From NCBI RefSeq assembly GCF_035594765.1, contig NC_085844.1, positions 188,682,107 through 188,746,106 of the forward strand: DNA of 64,000 nt, written 5' to 3'. A model generated the notes under the pieces. The model worked only from the letters and a program-made list of their open reading frames with translations, was not told where the DNA came from and did no database searches. Below, one piece after another: positions 6,653 to 55,913 of the stretch (position 1 is the first letter of the stretch; every line of letters starts with the position of its first letter). The stretch is from Anolis carolinensis. Its lineage: Eukaryota. The position numbers and the translations under genes are program-made.

Positions 6653-9600
6653 CTACTCTTTCTTGTTACACCATTTGGCCATTTTGTTATTAATGGGAGT
6701 CTTCATAAATCGGCTGGAGCTCATGTAGGCTGCAATTTTCTCCAAGGCCTGAGAAAACAAAAAATTGAGTGTTTCAGAAAACAAGGTGGGGAGAAAAAGA
6801 ATTTGCAACAGGTCAAAAGCTGAAAATACTACAGAAAAAGGAAAGTTTTTCCAGCCAGGTTGAGTTTGCTCATAGGCTATATTAAAACACAAATTCTAGA
6901 ACACCCTTCCTGAGTGTATTGCCCCACATATATTCTGGACCACAACCTTTGGCCAAACCCTCACAAGGACATGAGGTCTGAGAAGGCTTCAACCTATGGC
7001 TCCGAGAACAGCTCCTTTGTTCAAACTTGCTAACGGTGCATCAGATTTTTACCAGTTTGTCTTAGGCCTTGGATTTACTCCTATTTAAGACACCATCTCC
7101 ACAAATTGGCTTTTTCCTCACCTTTTCATGACATTGGTATAGGACATGAATAGAGAACCAGGCCCTCCTGTTGTCATATGACTGTAACTCCCCTCATTTT
7201 TGATCATGCAGCTGGATTTGATGGGAATTTGAGTCCACCAACACATGGAAGGCTGGAGTGTATGTGTGACTGGCATAAAATTTATTCCAAAATGATAATG
7301 CTCAGAGACTTCACCTGATAAAAGGGAAATCTCCCAGCTCTGCTACTCATGAAAAAGGCACTGCCCCTATCCAAGCAACTTTGGTGGACTACAACAGGGA
7401 GCAATAGATTCAAATTTCAGGGGGGGAAAAGATTCCACCTAAACATTAGGACTAACTTCCTGATGGTAAGACATTTTTTGCAACATGCTGCCTCAGAGTG
7501 TGGTAGACTATCTTTCTCTGGAGGTTTTTAAGCAGAGGCTGAATGGCCATCTGTCAAGGGTGCTTTGATTCTGTGTCCCTGCATGGCAGAGGGCTGGGCT
7601 GGATGGCCATGTGGTCTTTTCCAACTTTATGATTCTACGATTCTACAAAGTTGGTACAGAAACCAATCCATACTTTCTACACAGTAAGTTGGTGGCACTA
7701 AGGCTTTATAGATTGCAATAAGTAAGTTCTCCCAACTGCCAACAACTGTGTTACTACAGGAAAAAGCTCATTAAACAAAAGGATAAAAGTGAAATTACCA
7801 CCAGGCCCATTTAGAACAAAGCACATTTTAACAACCTGCCTGAAGCATTTGTGTACCTAAAGGAAACAGACAATATTTCTCACATATTCTTGTCTTTGCC
7901 AGCTTAGACAGCTGCTCCAGCCATTTTGGAACCTTGCTGTCTGTTAATCTGTCGGTGGCTGCTTGCCAGGAAATAACAAACCCCATCACAAGATGCACAA
8001 AATGACCGGCAAACAATCACATATCTCAAAGCCAAAACTAACCTCAAAATGGGTGAGAAAATCCTGAAGGTTCTTAAACTGATCAAGGCACTTAGGCTCA
8101 AACATGCGGTTTTGATCCAGGACGTCATACATGAGGAAGTCAACAAACGTGATCTGGAAAAAATCAAAGAGCATTAGTGATACTCCAGAAGGACTGAGCC
8201 TACTCTTGGGTAAAACCAGGTCTGAATATGCACATACCTTGTCACCAGCAAACCACTTTCTGTCCCCTAAGAACTGAGAAAACAATTTCAACTTCCCTGG
8301 CAGTTGCTCCAAGTATCCAGGTTTTAATTTTTCCTAAAAAGAGAACCAAAAAACCCAGGAAAAAATCAATGTACTATTTAAATAGAAGACTGTAACCCCT
8401 TATCTTAGAAATAATTATGGAAGACTAATGGCTGGAAAGTATTGCACTGTATGCAACAAACACTCGCAAATGTATGTATATTTGAAATATATATATACAT
8501 ACACACATACACATAAATCAATGAGGAATAAACTGTTTCCATGGCTAAAATTAAAAAGAACTTCTACTGTCCAATGTGCCTATGGAATTAGGAATAATCA
8601 ACAGCTAAGATACCAGAGTGAGGCAAAATGACTCTAGGAGAAAGTTCTTGAGTGATTCCAATAAACTTCTTTGGAAAAGAGTTATTGCTGAGAAGCTTCT
8701 ATTCCTAACAGCCCAAAAATGTCATTCCTCTGGCAAACTGTTTCTGCCATTACAGCAACATTCAAAGGAATGTTCTATTATTTATTTATTTGTTGGCTTA
8801 CTTTATTATTTAAGATGTTTTTACCCCGCCTTTCTCCACAAGCAGACTCAAGGCGGCTTACAACAGAATAAAACCATACAATACAAAGTTAAAACATGGT
8901 TAAAATCACATATTTGTAAATCCGTTGTTTCACACAACAGTCATGATTGCTGTGTGTAATTTTTGTTTCCTAAAGAGGGAGGGTGGCACACACATGCTTT
9001 AAATATCTTGGTCTTCTGAGACTCTTATCACAATCCCCAGAAACAGATGTGTGTGCATCACTTCATGCTTCGGGTAGAAGAAACAGCGCTGTACACGGTG
9101 GACGTGTTTACTGCATAAAACATGGATTATAATTCCTTTTGCAGATGTTGCAAAGACCTGCTTCTTCTCCTCTGGCTCAGTACAGTAGGTGTAAATGGTG
9201 GGAAGCAGTACAACTTACAAAATCAGGATTGTAGCAGATCATCACAAGGCTCATGCGGAAATCCATCACCTGATTCTCCAGCATGTCCACTCTCATTATT
9301 TCCTCTTCGGTTTCTCCACCTAGAGCCAACACACAGAGATGAGAAATCATGGGGAGAAGTAAGCAGGTTTTCCCAGTCCAGACCCCAGGAGAACTCAGCC
9401 ATACTTACAAAGCTTATGTTTGCGTGCAATGTACCGGAGAATGGCATTACTTTGTGTGAGCTTGGTCTTGCCATCAATTAGGTAAGGAAGCTGGAAAACA
9501 CAGAGAGAGATCAGCTCAAGGCCAAATCCTTGCCTTGTGCTTCCAAGTTCACTCTTAATGACCCATTCAGTCTATTCATAATTGTTCCTCAGCCCCTTCT

Positions 9601-13103: not shown

Positions 13104-15489
13104 GTTTGTTCTCTTGACTTATACGAAGATGTGGGTAAGAATTTTAAAAAATGGTTACTGTATATACTCAATTATAAACTGAGTTTTCAGCCCTTTTTTA
13201 GGGCTGAAAAAGCCCCCCTCAGCTTATACTCGAGAGAGGTCCTGGCCGGCTTATATTTGGGTTGGCTTATACTCAAGTATATACGGTAATCAGAGATGGA
13301 CAGTCTTATCTTAAATTACAATTTTATGTAAATATTCAAAAACATTTAACCTACTGATGCCTCAATCAATGTATTTTTATTAGTATCTATTTTTATTTTT
13401 GAAATTTACCAGTAGCTGCTGCATTTCCCCACCCTCATTTTATACTCGAGTGAATAAGTTTTCCCAGGTTTTTGGTGGTAAAATTGCATGTCTCGACTTA
13501 TACTCGAGTATATAGAATATTATTATTCAGCTTAAGGTATTCTTGGCAAGATTCATTCAGAGAGGAAGAAACATGCTAAAGTCTTCTGCTTTTCTCTGAG
13601 GCTGAAATCGGGTAACTTCCCTAAGGCCACCTGATGGGTTCCCATACCCGAGCAGGGATTAGAATCCTGATCTTAGTCCAACATGCAAACCACTCAGTCA
13701 CAAATCAAAACTGTCGATGCTACCAGTGTAAGTGCAAGATATAGAGGTGAGATGCTTACCGACAAAACAGAGCTACAAAGCCACAACGCAGCCTCCAAAT
13801 GAAGCAAAATGGTTGCATTCGCCAACATGAAAAGAATTCCTTACTGCCTACTCTGGGGGAGTGGCTGGCAAAGCTTAAGACAGGGCAGAAACAAGACACG
13901 TTGCCTTGTTTGATCAAAGGAACGGCTTTTCTGAAAAGCTGGAAAGCCCTTAATGGACTTTTGTTTTGCACTCCCCCCTTCCAAAAAACTCTTGATAACT
14001 TTACATTTTCATCATTAGACAAGATTGGTTGTAAAAAAGAGAAGGAAGCAGCAATAACTGTAAAGTAAGCATAAGTGCTGAAAACATGGACGGAAGTTGC
14101 TTTTTTCTTCTTCTCCATTTCTTTCTGTTCTCTTTCTAAATATATCTTTCAGTGCAGTGTTAAAATCTCTGTATGCATGTGTGCATGTGTATCTTTTAGT
14201 GCAATGCTAATAGCTTTGCATGTATTCATGCATGCATATGCATGTATGTGTGTATCCTTTAGTGCAATGTTAAAACCTTTGTATTTAAGTAGTGTTCCAA
14301 AAGTCTGTATACATAGAAAAAAACATAACAAACATATATTATATTTAACACATGTAAAACATTTTTATATTTATATTGTTGTGTGTACTGGAAGAGTTTT
14401 GTAAAATTTTGTAAAGAAAGGTCGATTTATCTACAATGTCCCATTTCCCCTCTGTAAGCCAACTGTTGGTACACCTTATATGCATATACACAGGTGGGTC
14501 AAAAAGTAATGCCTCCATCGCTCTAACTCTAATTTATTTCACAGCTACTGGACTATCTATGCATGATATGATAGAGGTAGCCTTACTCTATCAATATAGT
14601 CTTTTCTTTCTCTGATTGGCTGATTAGAACCATGAATCTGAAGCTAAAAGAAAGAGGGGTCCTTGAATTCCTGGCAAAAGAAGGTTGCACACCTAAGGAA
14701 ATCCAAAATCCCTTGAAGAATTTTTATGATTTGCCCCCTTCTGACTTTTACCTGTTTTGGACCTCTGAAAGACCACTTGCGTGGTTTCAGATTCGAGGAC
14801 CTGAACGATGTTAAAACAGCTTTAAAATCATGGGTCACAAAAGCAAAACAAAACAAAAAACTAAATTTTTCCAAAATGGTTTTGACGCCTGGGTTAAAAG
14901 ATAGTACAAGTGTATACAAATGGATTCTGGTGACTATGTTCAACGGTAGTTTTGTGTGTAGAGGATAGTTCAGGCTGTGATCTGTAGCAACGTCTGCTGT
15001 TAATATGTTCATTCATAACATTTTTATGAAGCAGGAGACAAAACTTTTTGACCCACCTTGGTATCTATCTACAAAATGGAAAGATATATACACACACACA
15101 CATACAGAAACAAAAAGGACACCAACTGCACTTTGTATGTATGTACTATATATTCTGAATCTATCCCTTTGTGCATATACATGCATGTATGTGTGTGTAT
15201 AATACAGAGTGTGTGTGTATATGCAAAGATTGATATAGATATGTATATATACACACACAGAGACACATCCCAAACAAAAGGATCTTCACTCCAAACGTGC
15301 TGCGCTTGCTGCAAGACTCCATCATTTCCTTTCCCAGGAGCTGAGCTTTTTCCTATCGCTTCCCAAAGACATCCAAAGAGGTTTTCCTTCATGGGGCGAC
15401 CCTCCTTACACAAATTGCAGGCCCACCCCCCTGCAAAAGGGCCTCTGACTCACCCCTCGGATATCCCAGTAGCCCAAGATCATGGCCAT
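6653..15489 (-). CDS. GSTM: Glutathione S-transferase Mu (GSTM-A, GSTM3-like), complete, 220 aa
   Basis: Exons 15454-15489 ([12 protein letters not shown]), 11781-11856, 9723-9787, 9409-9490, 9219-9319, 8238-8333, 8043-8153, 6653-6748. All introns GT-AG, open frame. Catalytic Tyr7, Mu loop, [18 protein letters not shown] and PINNKMA motifs. Confidence 0.96.
7388..7646 (+). mobile_element. CR1 LINE 3' fragment
   Basis: [14 protein letters not shown]2 tail, ATTCTRTG-like terminal repeats. Confidence 0.75.
13158..13514. mobile_element. Tc1/mariner-superfamily MITE(s)
   Basis: TIRs (c/t)gtatatactc..gagtatata(c)g flanked by TA, repeated cttatactcgag motif. Confidence 0.6.
14489..15061 (+). mobile_element. 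Internally deleted mariner transposon
   Basis: TIRs aggtgggtcaaaaagt / actttttgacccacct with TA flanks; transposase remnants [11 protein letters not shown] (SPDLAPSD motif) and [12 protein letters not shown]. Confidence 0.8.
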
Positions 15490-15700
15490 GGTCGCCCTCT
15501 CGCCTTCTGCCTCCTCGTCCGCGTTGCTTGCAGCTCTGCCTTTGCAAAAGCGGGGGCGCCCTCGGAGGCAGGGACTGGGATAAAAGCGAGTCCTTCGGGG
15601 GAGGGGGAGAGGGGAGGGGAAGGGGGGTGGATTCGATTTTATTTGGTTCCTTAAAGGCGCAGAGCCTATTTCTGGCAGACCAAGGGGGCGGGGTGCTGAA
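15490..15700 (-). promoter_or_regulatory. CpG/GC-rich promoter and 5'UTR of GSTM-A
   Basis: CpG-rich stretch upstream of the ATG, GC box GGGGCGGGG at 15685-15693, G-runs 15597-15630. Confidence 0.6.
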
Positions 15701-16470: not shown

Positions 16471-16538
16471 CACAATGAGATGCATTGTTTTTCCTATACG
16501 CCTTATAACATAAATGTATAAACAATCTTTTTAATGTT

Positions 16539-16830
16539 TTGTCGAAGGCTTTCATGGCCTTCAATCACTGGGTTGCTGCGAGTTTTCCGAGCTGTGTGGC
16601 CATGTTCCAGAATCATTCTCTCCTGACAGTTCACCCCCATCTATGGCAGGCATCCTCCGAGGTTGTGAGGTCTGTCGGAAACTAGGCAAGTGGGGTTTAT
16701 ATATCTGTGGAAGGTCAAGGGTGGGAAAAAGAACCCTTGTCTGCTTGAGGCAAGTGTGAATGTTGCAATTGGCCACCTTTGAAGCTGCAAGGCTATTCAA
16801 TGCTAATCAAGGTGGCCAATTGCAACATTC
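16539..16830 (-). mobile_element. Penelope-like element terminal-repeat fragment with inverted junction
   Basis: Matches copies at 45570-46124 and 55272-55913; inverted pair 16758-16779/16808-16830. Confidence 0.75.
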
Positions 16831-18569: not shown

Positions 18570-20773
18570 TCTATATATATAAAAGGGTAATGGAATCGCG
18601 GCACCGAGCAAAACAACAAAAGTAAAGGCCCCCCAATCTCGAAATTTTACAACACAACCCATCCTCCACGCCTTAAGGTTGAAACAACACAAAATCACTT
18701 CAGGCACCTCCACATGGAGAGAACCCACAACGCACCATCGGGAGCCATGCCAGGAAGGGAAAAGAGAAGCCCTCATGGCCGCGGCAAGAGGGAAGGCAGG
18801 CAATGGGAAAAAGCTGTCCCCTGGGTCCTAGTGCCCGCCCATCATCAGAATCATTTCTCTCCACTATACCTGGGCAAAGAGGCAAAAGCTCAGCAAGAGA
18901 CAGCACACCTCCCCCTCAGGAGCCTAAACTACCCATCCTGCAATCCCCTCGGCTTAACCTTCCCCGCAGCCTCCTCCCGCCCTTCCCTCTGTTTTACATC
19001 CTCCAAAGCACTTGGCCGCAAGCCCCGCCCCTTCTACACCTCGCCTGTCCCCAAGAGGACACTGCTAACTGTGAGTCCTCCGGAGGCAGCGGGGCGGGCC
19101 TTTCACTGCCCTGGCTTCCGGCTCTCCCTCCTCAACCGGCACGCCTCCCTCAAGGCCTCCCTCACAACCTCCTCACTGCTGAAACTGCAGCCCATGGACT
19201 TGCTGGAGGGCGAGCTCCTCCTTCCGCCTCCCCACCCAAACAAAGCCAAAAGGAGGAAGGAGCGCACGATGAGGACAAACGGGAACAGCCAAACCCTCCA
19301 CCACCTCAACCCCCCTCGAAAGGCGGAGGAGGACCAGGGATCTCCCTCCCGCCTCCCAGCAGGGCATACCTGTAAACGCACCCTCTCGGGAGGGCTTTCA
19401 TTCACTCCGATATAACAGAATGGTTCCCAACTGCATGACCTTTGGAGTAAACCACTTTTCTCTTCAACGTTGGAAGTGCTCCACTGGATTACCATTGAAT
19501 CCCCTTGGGGCTTCAAAGCCTGGCTACATCCTGCCTGGGAAATCCTTTCTGGGACATGTAAGCTGCCCCTATCATTCTCTTCTCACCTTTCCCCCACATC
19601 TACGTCAGGTATCCAAAGGTTCTCCAATGTGTTGCAAACAAGGCAAATGGCCTTCATATATATGTGCTGTAATGTCCAGGGTGCAGAAAAGGACTTTTCG
19701 ATGTTTTAATTCGACCACTTGATTACCATTGAATAGCCTTGCAGCTTCAAACCCTGGCTACATCCTGCCTGGGAAATCCTTTGTGGGGACATGTAACCTA
19801 GCCCTATGATTCTCTCCTCACATTTCGCCCACATCTATGTCAGGTATCCACAGGTTATCAGGTCTATCGCAAACTAGGCAAGCAGGGCTTTATACATATG
19901 TGCAATAATCCCCAGGATCCATTAAACCATTTTTGTCATCAATGTTAGAATTGGTCACTTTTATTACCATTCAATACCCTTGCAGCTTCAAACCCTGACT
20001 GCATCCTGCCTGGGAAATCCTTTCTGGGACATATAAGCTGACCCTATGATTCTCTCCTCACGTTTCACCCACATCTATGTCACATATCCACAGATTCTGA
20101 AATGTGTAGACAACTAGGCAAATGGCATTTATATATATATATATACAATAATGTCCACAGTGGAGAAAAACACTTTTCTCTTCAATATTGTAATTGGTCC
20201 ACTTGACCATTTAATACCCTTCCAACTTCAAACCCTCACTGCATCCTCCCTGGGAAATCTTTTGTGGGGACATGTAAACTGACCCTATAATTCTCTCCTA
20301 CGTTTCGCCCACATCTATATCAACTATCCACACGTTCTCAAATGTGTTGAAAACTACGCAAATTGAGTTTATATATGTCTGCAATCATGTCCAAGGTGGA
20401 GGAAAGGACTTTTCTCTTCAATGTTGTCATTACTCCACTTGATTACCATTGAATAACCTTACAACTTCAAACCCTGCCTCCATCCTACTTCGGAAATCCT
20501 TTCTTGGGACATGTAAGCTAACCCGATGGAACCCCTGCCCCCCGGGGTTAAACCCTTATTACTTCAACATGACCTTCCTCTTCCGAAGGCACATAAGCTC
20601 CTTCTATCACCTCCACCTCCATGCGGGGACATCAGAAAACCCTCCCACAAAGATTCTAAAAAACATCAAAACATTCCACCAACGTCCCACGGCCAATGTC
20701 CTTCCACATGCCCAATTCTCTACCCAACAAAACATTCCTACAGCCACAGCAACGCATGGCCGGGCACAGCTAG
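18570..20773 (+). mobile_element. Non-autonomous Helitron carrying captured sequence
   Basis: 5' A|TCTATATATATAAAA, 3' subterminal hairpin gccacagcaacgcatggc then CTAG|T, no TSD, no RepHel ORF. Confidence 0.8.
19440..20524 (-). repeat. Tandem array (~4.5 units of ~240 bp) of Penelope terminal-repeat sequence inside the Helitron
   Basis: Anchor cttcaaa recurs at 19511, 19745, 19986, 20226, 20465; units align with Penelope copies at 16615-16800 and 55320-55570. Confidence 0.85.
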
Positions 20774-41493: not shown

Positions 41494-44400
41494 TATTGTA
41501 GCTTTCTTTTTTCACAGAACATATACAAGATTACAAATTCCTGTATGGCAGGGGTGGGAATGGATGGCCAGTCAAAACTTGATACATTTTAGCTAGCACA
41601 TTGGGAGGCTGTGACTATTTAGTAGTCTTGTTGTTGTAAGGTCATGTCTAGATATTCTTTGCCTCACTCTTCTTTTTCTCTTGCAAGCAAGAAACCAGAA
41701 ATTAATTAGAACAGCCAGGTTTTCTTTGACCCTGTGATTAAGATTATACTCTACCCAGCCCTAGTTTTCAACTGTGCTGCAATTTCTACTTAAAGCAGTC
41801 CACAATTTGGCACTGTGAATGTGGGCAAGAGTCTCTTTCTGAGATCACCGGAGGACACTTTTCAAAGTTAGTAGAAAACTAATTTCACTTCCACGCCAAC
41901 GCTCAGCATTGGCTTGTAATGCCATAATTGCTACATACATTTGGGAAGTCCAAGCCCAGTTTCTCCTTCACACTAGTCCATTGACTAGTGTCAAAATCAG
42001 GAGCTGTAAATAGAGAAACAAACAGTAAATACCAAATCCTTGTCTGTACTTTTCAAGAGTTATTTTCTGCATTGTATCTATAATATACAAGTTCAGCAAT
42101 GACTGAGGTTCTGCCAAGCAATAATGGCTTGCAGCAGTAGAATTTAGTTTCCAACAAGTAGTCCCTCATGCTGAAAACCTACTTGGAAACTAGCCCTGTT
42201 GAACATTGTGGGACTTACTCCCAATAAATATAAATAATATTATGCAATACACTTCAACAATATAGTAATATACAATTCTAATATTGTGCTATGCTAATAA
42301 TATAATATATTGTATGTACATATAACATTGATCATAATATTGTAATACAATATAATACTAATAATACAATATTGCAGTATAGTGGTATAGTATACTATAG
42401 TAATGTATAATGTTAACATTGTGCTATGCTAATAATATAATATATTTTATGTACATATAATTTGTAAGCCACTCTGAGTCCCCTTTGAGGTGAGAAGGGC
42501 GAGATATAAATGTCGCAAATAAATAAATAAACATTTCAGATGAAAACTGAAGCAACATACAATTCATATCTGTCACCATAATACCTAAATATTTCATCTT
42601 GTTGTCATTTTTAAACCAGATTTATCCATCAATCAGAGCCCCCGATGGTGAAGTGGGTTAAACCCTTATGCCAGCAGGACTGTTGACTTGAAGGTTGGGT
42701 TGCTAACCTGAAGGTTGCCGGTTTGAATTCAACTTGGGGAGAGCGCGGATGAGCTCTCTCTGTCAGCTCCAGCTCTCCATGCAGGGGGACATGAGAGAAG
42801 CTTCCCACAAGGATGGTAAAAACATCAAAAACAGTTCCCTGAGGAATGTCCTTGCAGACAGCCAATTCTCTCACACCAGAAGCGACTTGCAGTTTCTCAA
42901 GTCACTCCTGACATGAAAAAAAAAATCAATCAACTGTATATGTTCATCTTTTTGTCAATGCCATCATCTTTTGCTACTTAATCTCAAACCTTGCCAACTC
43001 TCCAAATCTTTCCAGTTTCTCCAATAATGGATCTATTCTTTCTATTCAAAACTTCATGAGTCAAAATAAATAAGAATTGAGACAATCAACAACCTCGTCT
43101 TGTTTCTTTCTGTATTTCACATGGTTTTGTTAGTTTATCATTAACCAAGGTTTGTGCATTCTGTGAATTATAAATCACCTTAATCCATTTAGTAAAATTA
43201 TTACCAAAGTTCATATCTTCCAAAAAGACCCAGGGGACAGGGAATGGGACAGGACTTGCCCTCCATATTCCTGGAGGTCTTGCTTCTTGTAGGAAAGTAG
43301 ACACAAAAGGAATTGTTCTCTGGCTTTTAACTATGTGAATGTAGAGCCCTTTTTTACAGAACACAATATCTAAAACAGAGATGGTTTATTTCTTGTTGGT
43401 GAACTGCAACTCCCATTAGCCCTAGCAAGCACAATCAGGGAGCGCGGAAGCAAAAGGCTTGAGTACATAAAGAAAAGAAAGATACAGAGGCAAGAATAAG
43501 TGACACGTATTATATAAACTTCCCTCTCTGACAAATTACTCTATATGAGCATCAGTTCCTCTTTGCTGCCCATATTCTAATTTTTTACCTTCTCCAAAAT
43601 GATATTGTTTGTCTTCATATGGTGTTTCAGTGTATTCTAAAAGTAACCTGATTGCATGGGCAAGCTGCAAAAAATCAAAGGGAGAGAATTAGTGGAAAGA
43701 TAAGACACATGTTGCCTCTAACAGGAGAAAAAGCATACTTTTAAGAAGTTGCTCAGGAATACGAGTGACAGTGCTGGGGTTGCTAGTATGACTTCCCTTC
43801 ATATATTTAATTATAGCCCTCATTGTGTCTCCTCTCCATCCTCTCTTTTGCAGACTAAACATGCCCAGCTCTTTCAGCCACTCCTCATAGGGCTTATTCT
43901 GCAGACCCGTGATCATTTTAGTCGCCCCCTTCTGGACACCTTCCAGCTTGTCAACGTCTCCTTATAAATTGCAGTGCCCAGAATTGGACACAGTGTGATT
44001 CCAGGTGTGGTCTGACCAAAGCAGAATAGAGGGGTAGCATGACTTCCCTGGATCTAGACACTAGACTCCTATTGATGCAGGCCAGAATCCCACTGGCTTT
44101 TTTAGCTGCCACATCACATTGTTAGCTCATGTTTAACTTGTTGTCCAGGAGGACTCCAAGGTCTTTTTCACACGTACTGCTGTCGAGCCAGGTGTCCCTC
44201 ATTCTGTATCTGTGCATTTCATTTTTTTCTAAGTGAAGTATCTTGCATATGTCTCTATTGAACTTCATTTTGTAAGTGCTGGCCCATCTCTCTAATCTGT
44301 TAAAATCGTTTTGGATTCTGCTCCTGTCTTCTGGGATATTGGCTGTCCCTCTCAATTTGGTGTCGTCTGCAAACTTGATCATGCCTTCTAACCTTTCCTC

Positions 44401-45569: not shown

Positions 45570-46124
45570 ATCAATGGACGTGAAAGCCACTGCAGGCTAA
45601 CTCAATCAGAGAAGTGAGTAATAGTAGAGCACTTGGTGAACCAATCTGGACACAAGCATGTTATTTGAGAACACAGAAATACTGGACCACTCTAACAACT
45701 ACCATGTCAGACTACATAGAGAAGCCACTGAAATCCACAAGCATGTGGACAATTTCAACAGAAAGGAGGAAACCTTGAAACTGAACAAAATCTGGCTACC
45801 AGTATTAAAATAAACTCTAAAATCAGGACAGTAAACAAACACTCTGAAAACAGGAATTCCAGGCACAAAGCAATCAGGGCCTGCTAACACCTCCCAACAA
45901 AGGATCTCACCAGGCAGGAATCAGCCAGGCCTTGAAGCTGCAAGGCTTTTCAACAGACAAGAGTTTTTTCTCCCATGCTGGACCTTCCACAGATATATAA
46001 ATCTCCCTTTCCTAGTTTCCAATATACCTTACAACTTCTGAGGATGTCTGCCATAGATGTGGGTAAAACGTAAGGAGGGAATGTTTCTGGAACATGGCCA
46101 TACAGCCCGGAAAACTCGCAGCAG
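45570..46124 (+). mobile_element. Penelope-like element 3' part (GIY-YIG C-terminus plus terminal repeat)
   Basis: ENTEILDHSNNYHVRLHREATEIHKHVDNFNRKEE; terminal repeat with degenerate hammerhead motif at 46038-46073. Confidence 0.8.
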
Positions 46125-46509
46125 TGACAACAGGAGGTGAGAAAAATCTACTCCTCCAAAGAGAAACACACTCCTGGAAAAGTTATTCTCATGGGGAAAA
46201 GGTGCCTCCACTGAAATTTTCTCATCAATTATTGTTTCTACAAGCCAAAATTTTAAAAATCCAATTATCACAGGAACAGGAAGTGAGGTGAAATCTTCTG
46301 AACAGAGGCAAAGCCAGCAAAACAAACAGCACAGGAATGTTCACCCTTCCCTAGGCTATCCAAAACTAATATAAATATATATTTGGCTGGAGTTACACTT
46401 CAAAATGTACCTGTTCCAACTTGCATAAAAATTCAGCTTGAGAACAAATCTACAGAACCTTTCTTGATCATAACTTGGCTGTTGGGAGTTGTAGTCCATC
46501 AGAATGTGG

Positions 46510-55271: not shown

Positions 55272-55913
55272 GGCTGGATTGCTGTGCGTTTTCCGGGCTA
55301 TATGGCCATGTTCCAGTAGCATTCTCTCCTGACATTTCACCCACATTTATGCAGGCATCCGCAGAGATTGTGAGGTATTGGAAACTAGGCAAGTGGGGTT
55401 TATATATCTGTGGAAGGTCCAGGGTGGGAGAAAGAACTCTTGACTGTTGGAGGCAGGTGTGAATATTGCAATTGATCACCTTGATCAGGACTGAATAGCC
55501 TGGCAGCTGCAAGATCTGACTGATTCCTGCTTGAGGGAATCCTTTGTTGAGAGGTGTTAGCTGGCCCTGATTGTTTCATGTCTTGTTTTCAGAGTGTTGT
55601 TCTTTATTTAATGTCCTGATTTTAGATTTTTTTAATACTGGTAGCCAGATTTCATTCATTTTCATGGTTTCTTCCTTTCTGTTGAAATTGTCCATATACC
55701 TGTGGCTTTCTCTGTGTAGTCTGACATGGTGGCTGTTATTCCATAGACATATAAATCCCACTTGCCTAGCTTCCAACAGACCTCCCAACCTCTGAGGATG
55801 CCTGCCATAGATGTGGGTGAAACGTCAGAAGAGAATGCTTCTGGAACATGACCATACAGCCCGCAAAACTCACAGCAACCCAGTGTGAAAGGCCATGAAA
55901 GCCTTCGGCAACA
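55272..55913. mobile_element. Penelope-like insertion with inverted structure (55272-55735 -, 55742-55913 +)
   Basis: HHVRLHRE..DNFNRKEETMKMNEIWLPVLK on - strand; second terminal repeat in opposite orientation. Confidence 0.8.
55789..55829 (+). ncRNA. Minimal type I hammerhead ribozyme motif (Penelope-associated)
   Basis: CTGAGGA (55792-55798), stem II gcctgc/gtgggt, GAAAC (55819-55823), GTC triplet; weak stem I; activity untested. Confidence 0.5.

Follow-up and report, generated by a model that had tools for sequence, protein, structure and literature searches.

The question raised by this locus is whether the guanines of captured repeats in one Helitron of the lizard Anolis carolinensis have been removed by a mutation process of their own and, if so, on which strand and when. 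The window, meaning the whole stretch of DNA that was analysed, is 64,000 nucleotides long, and positions below refer to it.

A Helitron with captured Penelope-like and SINE-like repeats

The element (Table 1) begins TCTATATATATAAAA, and direct reading of the sequence places its TC at 18570 and its CTAG at 20770-20773. It has the 5' TC and 3' CTRR ends of Helitrons; the same ends, together with the A and T flanks, were found in most related copies, and the right flank was T in 30 of 30 sampled family members, as in insertion between A and T without target duplication. The 3' end is common to intact RepHel elements. A subterminal stem of 6 pairs, 13 nt before the end (-3.5 kcal/mol), was no better than those of shuffled sequences (z 0.36).

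Table 1. Features of the window bearing on guanine loss; u0 to u4 are the units of the tandem array.
Feature	Position	Strand	Remarks
Non-autonomous Helitron	18570..20773	+	2204 bp; ends TC...CTAG; target between A (18569) and T (20774); without target duplication
5' terminal ~300 bp of Helitron	18570..18865	+	92-95% match to a different internal family (L020-L030)
C-rich interior	18866..19442	+	found only in related Helitron copies
Penelope-derived partial unit u0	19443..19576	+	G changed 13/32
Penelope-derived unit u1	19577..19811	+	G changed 29/67
Penelope-derived unit u2	19812..20051	+	G changed 33/67
Penelope-derived unit u3	20052..20292	+	G changed 37/64; contains 22-mer 20220-20241
Penelope-derived unit u4	20293..20523	+	G changed 38/66; contains 22-mer 20459-20480
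Captured SINE-like piece	20585..20743	+	G changed 23/38; G>C 12, C>G 1
Helitron 3' terminus	20743..20773	+	short subterminal stem-loop, CTAG
Free Penelope-like copy, query and control	55280..55620	+	without G>C bias
Free Penelope-like copy, reference of the sequence-only reading	45850..46140	-	G>C 1/19 differences
Free Penelope-like copy	16520-16830		in the window
Free copy of the SINE-like source of 20585-20743	42630..42915	+	

The 5' terminal 300 bp were likely swapped in by recombination, because L005 and L018 have the same interior with another 5' end. For the C-rich interior no source was found, all 8 long hits being Helitron copies or pieces of them where checked; in a four-way comparison of this interior, 32 of the 36 differences on the internal branch involved G on one side. 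A tandem array with a 240-bp period and 4.5 units follows at about 19443-20530, each unit being a contiguous piece of a repeat that we take, following an earlier sequence-only reading, to be Penelope-like, as we do the free copies.

The Helitron lies about 3 kb upstream of a GST mu-like copy starting near 15490. This copy belongs to a putative cluster on the minus strand (8150-63420), in which about six genes of the glutathione S-transferase mu-like type lie in tandem, with presumed exon-1 motifs at 15477, 35227, 44503, and 56338 and further presumed exons at 8153, 9490, 11853, 25308, 25956, 34536, 40249, 43661, 50205, 50956, 55201, 61002, and 63417.

Elsewhere in the genome, near copies were found at 92-97% identity (L002-L004, L006 with L007, and L018), only about seven near copies having the exact structure of the Helitron, along with farther copies (L005, L008-L019) at 76-81% identity and a family (L020-L030) that has only the 5' 300 bp in common with it. 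The last 28 bases of the family have 14,869 exact genomic matches, which puts the family at about 15,000 copies. One young copy (G000:C2:307730803-307739417, comprising L006 and L007) is interrupted by an insertion of about 6.3 kb. At several head-to-tail junctions (L098:8385, L105, L013, L020, L211), CTAG is followed directly by the TC of another family member.

The autonomous partner (L098, L100, L102) has open frames of 1511, 1484, and 1381 aa, shares 31 of 32 terminal bases with the family, and encodes a RepHel protein with Pfam Helitron_like_N and PIF1 domains over cut-off, 100% identical to an Anolis carolinensis entry and followed mostly by arthropod proteins among named relatives. The three elements (L098:729-8384, L100:885-8130, L102:942-8185) are young and mutually 97-99% identical, have long open RepHel frames (1487 aa from ATG in L098), and are possibly still active. 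Their 5' region holds a tandem repeat of about 133 bp and a captured Sauria-like SINE. A second RepHel lineage (L103, L104), about 66% identical, is found in the same genome.

Guanine is lost from the captured pieces

The sequence-only reading had set two 22-mers of the array (20220-20241 and 20459-20480) against the reverse complement of 45922-45943. We recovered its 6 and 6 differences, 12 of 12 at G and 6 of 12 being G>C, although three rather than two of them are shared between the units. A full alignment of all 4.5 units with the majority sequence of 30 free Penelope-like copies gave 243 differences, 150 of them at G (66 to C, 64 to A, and 20 to T), while C changed to G 4, to T 13, and to A 8 times (296 G and 209 C sites compared). 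With each site and allele entered a single time, 85 of 138 differences were at G, and the ratio of G>C to C>G was 37:3, compared with 13:12 among the 704 differences of the 30 free copies (Fisher p=5e-4). For G>C the bias is absent from free copies, but G>A is itself mildly in excess there on the same strand (204 on 99 G versus C>T 101 on 68 C), and so only G>C is cleanly diagnostic.

The SINE-derived piece, which lies outside the stretch pointed out originally, behaves in the same way: 23 of its 35 differences are at G, with G>C far above C>G (Table 1), while 25 free SINE copies gave G>C 6 and C>G 11 among 551 differences. G depletion also rises downstream in this copy, as had been suspected (u0 to u4 in Table 1; trend p=0.026, the units not being independent). 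The strand-resolved alignment of units and other copies is asymmetric with its bias at G, and the hypermutation is thus confirmed and larger than first reported.

The letters themselves were compared with contigs from 4 of 24 listed runs, from 4 studies and 2 organisms. The contigs matched the units mostly with 0-4 other letters per 90-350 bases (for example, 1 in 348 bases over 20134-20481), and two pieces from the second organism had 8 and 13. Base-calling error is ruled out by these four independent runs and by the recurrence of the units in other genomic copies at 92-97% identity. The free copies are the best hits to one query, so their majority may not be the true source, and the root branch of the unit tree described below has 21 changes with little G>C, as might be seen if a divergent Penelope subfamily had been captured. 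A wrong Penelope reference is nevertheless ruled out, since the bias falls after the root branch, on post-capture branches (227 events), and it recurs in three other captured sources. An artefact, whether of sequencing, assembly, or reference, is thus hardly conceivable.

The loss follows the Helitron strand

We found that G loss tracks the strand of the Helitron irrespective of the orientation of the captured piece. In L020-L030, where a Penelope piece was captured in reverse, G of the Helitron top strand was lost at 9 of 20 sites and C at 1 of 29, which bears out the proposed tie to the Helitron strand. A Sauria-like SINE within the autonomous element showed G>C 13 and C>G 1 among 60 differences. 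Free Sauria-like copies (21, lying in flanking sequence) lean in the opposite direction (C>G 34 versus G>C 16 among 562), which may be subfamily structure. No bias was seen in a CR1-like captured piece (G>C 1/23, with a poor source match) or in a MITE insert (G>C 5 and C>G 4 among 24), the latter being likely a late insertion. This MITE, of 323 bp, is nested in the Helitrons L020, L023 (element 1197-1520), L022, and L024, is partly tandem-amplified together with flanking Helitron sequence, and has an end matching TcMar-N7_AC (PMC3014272).

Hobo-like cut-and-paste elements served as a control: of 30 loci bearing the hobo end motif, 22 contain Penelope and Sauria repeats of the same kinds. In these elements fixed differences changed G at 10/94 and 10/92 sites, G>C occurred 3 and 2 times, and the skew was -0.03 to +0.07, the pieces being only about 9% diverged and hence having had less time for change. 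A bias common to any repeat captured by a composite DNA transposon is ruled out by these elements.

The coding sequence of the autonomous RepHel element, which has the same 3' end, carries the same mark. Its fourfold sites are A331 C130 G44 T116 (G 7%, C 21%, A 53%), and its CpG-free GC skew is -0.44 to -0.51, compared with -0.07 +/- 0.16 in 68 other RepHel genes, retained from 80 metagenome loci after genes of <400 codons and duplicates were dropped. Skew was below zero in 46 of the 68, and none of the 68 was as low as the lizard family; G loss as a general property of Helitrons is unsupported by this set. Scans of metagenomes and viruses with the lizard RepHel protein alone as query gave no result, and tblastn against phages returned distant helicases only. 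In the second anole lineage (L103, L104) the CpG-free silent-site skew is flat (-0.05, +0.02). Amino-acid changes of lizard RepHel, ranked against 114 relatives, were 8:3 for the G>C type (rank 2/115) and 22:8 for the G>A type (rank 3/115). Recent RepHel branches are weakly biased at most, in a polarised spectrum that rests on just 37 G at fourfold sites.

Across the family, top-strand GC skew was negative in 90 of 90 sampled members and AT skew positive in 88 of 90, the sample being taken among the 100 family ends that head the listing for contig C1 and covering a few subfamilies and one element twice, so that members are not independent. The A-over-T excess is strong on the top strand of family interiors and at RepHel silent sites (L098, L105, L106; AT skew about +0.5 versus 0.00 +/- 0.12 in the 68 RepHel genes). 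The rates measured below predict a T-rich end state instead (A.28 C.31 G.03 T.37). Loss of T was not shown to be the cause in the lineage events (T>C 22 versus A>G 14; T>A 11 versus A>T 10) or in RepHel amino-acid changes (T>A rank 8/115, T>C rank 70/115).

The loss accumulated in the transposing lineage

Young copies of this Helitron differ by about 1.3% from their majority. In five of them, private changes (n=137) were rich in CpG and balanced between the strands (G>C 6, C>G 9, G>A 35, C>T 40), which rules out damage to the copy at 18570-20773 after its insertion. Instead of the attack on this copy that had been proposed, the bias built up along the transposing lineage, ahead of the last amplification. 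Private clusters of the APOBEC type were not seen in single copies, whose private changes were symmetric or nearly so.

A set of 384 lineage events was assembled from the root branches and internal branches for four captured sources, with the unit tips of L005 added; 253 of these events fell at G on 22% of sites. G>C exceeded C>G by 115 to 10 (p=6e-26), G>A exceeded C>T by 115 to 32, and G>T exceeded C>A by 23 to 9; A>C was mildly raised (17 versus T>G 6, p=0.035) and T>C not significantly so. A tree of 41 units placed 227 changes on lineage branches, 169 of them at G (G>C 82 versus C>G 7, G>A 75 versus C>T 10, G>T 12 versus C>A 2), while G>C made up 1 of 25 changes on terminal branches of the young family and 31, versus 2 C>G, of 149 on those of older families; such parsimony counts on trees of recombining tandem units are approximate.

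Units of the older families have lost 13-23 of 63-68 G, and those of this Helitron's family and L005 have lost 29-43 of 63-67, while non-G changes per unit stay constant at about 11-25 across older and younger families. Up to 25 of 50 G changed on single branches with 5 other changes, and about 40% of G changed on single stems with non-G sites unmoved. G loss therefore ran independently of the neutral clock and is a property of the founder line, in support of the earlier view that this is not ordinary neutral decay. Singletons in young short families (40 short copies) were near symmetric (G>C 12 versus C>G 10, p=0.04), and pooled terminal changes gave G>C 18 on 3647 G versus C>G 18 on 6985 C (p=0.054). 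This small excess is compatible with a slow ratchet, without proving it or establishing an effect per hop; with intermediates between older and younger families outside the sample, the data fit a burst or a slow ratchet.

Taken together, these results define a G-loss spectrum that lies on one Helitron strand, arose before the last amplification, and is tied to this Helitron family, whose captured host sequences have lost roughly half of their top-strand guanines.

Sequence context and type of damage

Context was scored over the 253 G events. The AID hotspot WRC (GYW on the top strand) was not enriched (65 observed versus 63.1 expected), and the AID-like targeting suggested earlier is unsupported. 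GA, the bottom-strand TC context, was raised 1.3-fold (79 versus 59.6, p=0.006) and WGA was raised too (48 versus 31.0, p=0.002); G in runs changed less than expected (110 versus 139.2) and CpG sites as expected (20 versus 21.0). The preference is confined to G>C (5' A 45 versus 26.7; on the 3' side, A and C are raised and G is lowered), and G>A by itself had no contextual preference, whichever of the four positions was scored (p 0.39-0.88). The APOBEC-like context proposed for the element thus survives as a weak TC preference but fails for G>A, and with AID unsupported as well, host restriction is unproven.

Read on the bottom strand, the changes are C>G 115, C>T 115, and C>A 23, the strand-coordinated pattern of uracil and abasic-site bypass. 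Plain guanine oxidation fits poorly, G>T being the rarest outcome (23/253) where 8-oxoG would make it dominant. Cytosine damage with abasic bypass on the minus strand, one of the mechanisms named in the sequence-only reading, is the best fit to the spectrum. GC-biased gene conversion or CpG decay cannot yield G>C.

It is highly improbable that selection merely sorted ordinary mutations by favouring master copies whose top strand was poor in G, with fewer G-quadruplexes or hairpins and easier peeling. Such selection would agree with a top strand that is G-poor family-wide (90/90) and with A-richness beyond the measured rates. However, the neutral ratio of G>C to G>A is 13:204 in free copies compared with 115:115 in the lineage (p=6e-27), non-G sites stood still on the stems where about 40% of G changed, and G runs were lost less, not more.

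A proposed model for the loss of guanine

We lean, at somewhat better than even confidence, toward the explanation that cytosine lesions in the bottom strand, bypassed as abasic sites during resynthesis of the top strand, caused the loss of lineage G equally to C and A. The transposase would peel off the top strand and leave the bottom, template strand single-stranded where peeling outpaces resynthesis. Cytosines of the bare template would likely be deaminated or otherwise damaged to abasic sites, and translesion polymerases making the new top strand would likely insert C (Rev1-type) or A opposite them. The altered top strand would be kept by the donor or moved to a new site, the next founder would begin from it, and small losses per donor cycle could ratchet up through many serial hops. 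The lesion-bearing strand, the lesion chemistry, the polymerase, and the per-cycle ratchet are inferred. The source of the damage looks poorly sequence-specific, being either spontaneous or a weakly TC-preferring deaminase.

Published work provides the setting. Helraiser transposes its plus strand alone, with resynthesis and reuse of donors and double-stranded circles (PMC5876387), so in every cycle the same bottom strand is the template for a fresh top strand. In persistent single-stranded yeast DNA, equal C>T and C>G is the mark of uracil-to-abasic conversion (PMC9262586). Against this explanation, peeling and leading-strand synthesis are coupled in the published model, an arrangement that would expose the top strand and not the bottom (PMC5876387), and our proposal of uncoupled peeling and resynthesis runs against that picture; a briefly exposed leading-strand template in yeast shows mostly C>T (PMC9262586). 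L103 and L104 are unskewed, recent RepHel branches are weakly biased, and the A-richness is unpredicted by the rates.

By the substitution spectrum, a bottom-strand C lesion is indistinguishable from a top-strand G lesion, and the main rival puts guanine adducts or oxidation products on the displaced top strand while it is single-stranded, whether as a circle, an inserted loop, or the template of the lagging strand; bypass would then place G or T opposite the lesion. The tested model does displace the top strand (PMC5876387, PMC4778049), and in single-stranded yeast DNA G>C is the change that methylglyoxal causes most often at G (C>G/G>C 1.13, C>A/G>T 0.75, C>T/G>A 0.67, x1e-5; PMC11956917). 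Yet G>T, at 23/253, is far under the methylglyoxal ratio, in which it about equals G>A, and CpG is unenriched, unlike the cCg>G motif of the same work (PMC11956917). The G>T count is also far under the 8-oxoG expectation, G runs are avoided, and an exposed top strand should also give C>T and C>G, both of which are low (32 and 10 of 384). We consider such top-strand lesions fairly unlikely.

A host deaminase, of the lizard APOBEC1-like kind, might instead edit the bottom strand as a defence in occasional heavy bursts, with later steps as in the abasic-bypass explanation. The GA and WGA excess and the long branches speak for it, as do the arthropod-like relatives without bias, and lizard APOBEC1 is a strong DNA mutator in a host whose L1 elements carry G-to-A editing (PMC3880073). 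It is nonetheless unlikely: the enrichment is 1.3-1.5 fold and in G>C alone, G>A being contextless, GYW is unenriched, the second lizard Helitron lineage is unbiased, and the family reached about 15,000 copies, so that any restriction must have been weak. The weak motif does not single out lizard APOBEC1.

Very unlikely is a lesion-free process in which the top strand is resynthesised outside S phase and low dGTP or an error-prone polymerase misinserts A or C opposite C. It accounts for the strand and for the lack of a strong motif, and C:C mispairs, which are poorly repaired by mismatch repair, would escape. But errors are confined to G (253/384 events on 22% of sites), and plain misinsertion would not usually produce G>C and G>A in equal numbers.

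Overall, what stands of the original interpretation is a non-neutral process on the Helitron strand, with cytosine damage on the minus strand as its best fit; AID-like targeting and an attack on this copy do not stand, and plain guanine oxidation fits poorly.

Relation to known systems

The element is of a known kind. Anole Helitrons with captured Penelope-type and SINE fragments are already published, and Helitron-2N3_AC resembles this one in being about 2 kb long and young, in having Penelope-type (Poseidon) and SINE fragments, and in a RepHel partner nearest to arthropod Helitrons; it is, however, listed with >1,000 copies compared with about 7 near copies here, the two being compared by length and content alone (PMC3014272). 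The word "mutation" has 0 occurrences in the main text of that paper, and the parts covered describe no strand bias. Helraiser shares the TC and CTAG ends, the target between A and T, the moved plus strand, and the resynthesised, reused donor of its peel-and-paste cycle (PMC5876387, PMC4778049), and this reuse gives the repeated one-strand synthesis that the G-loss signature requires. It differs in that its proposed coupled fork exposes the plus strand, while our signature, if it arose at C, would mean that the minus strand lay exposed; the parts covered of these two papers give no mutation spectrum.

Single-stranded-DNA hypermutation at yeast telomeres and in BIR, and APOBEC kataegis, likewise show C>T equal to C>G on one strand with C>A minor (PMC9262586), but the lizard signature is germline, cumulative along a transposon lineage, and without a strong TCW or WRC motif. 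APOBEC editing of lizard L1 occurs in the same host with the same plus-strand G loss (PMC3880073); it consists of G>A clusters in single retrotransposon copies, whereas the Helitron changes are half G>C, in a DNA transposon, and founder-fixed.

In mitochondria, strand displacement exposes one strand to damage, and the silent sites of its partner become poor in G and rich in A and C. The Helitron resembles this in its G-poor, A/C-rich strand, but the mitochondrial bias consists of transitions, while in the Helitron G>C is as frequent as G>A and T>C shows no significant rise (22 versus 14).

A review of transposon base composition mentions Helitrons just in passing (PMC9099904). Among the matches listed by our full-text searches, which covered main texts (including parts of PMC12001565, PMC4778049, and PMC2997563), no paper dealt with strand-biased mutation in Helitrons; Repbase-level notes or subscription papers could mention composition. 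The lineage-wide G>C/G>A signature thus appears undescribed.

Implications

These results describe a mutation process in a eukaryotic DNA transposon that is strong, specific to one strand, and linked to transposition. They bear on which Helitron strand is exposed and on whether donor resynthesis couples to peeling, which can be tested in Helraiser assays. Fairly unlikely, in our estimate, is a bolder version in which a vertebrate host deaminase edits the exposed template of a rolling-circle DNA transposon in the germ line, leaving founder-fixed scars that rewrote a family of about 15,000 copies and its transposase. If true, it would amount to APOBEC-type editing of a Helitron and to a fossil record of uncoupled peeling and resynthesis in vivo. 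With G sites changing about 10 times faster than others, divergence in this Helitron is not a neutral clock, and ages and subfamily trees are therefore distorted. Captured host sequences are recoded quickly and directionally, and G loss is usable as a counter of time spent in the active lineage.
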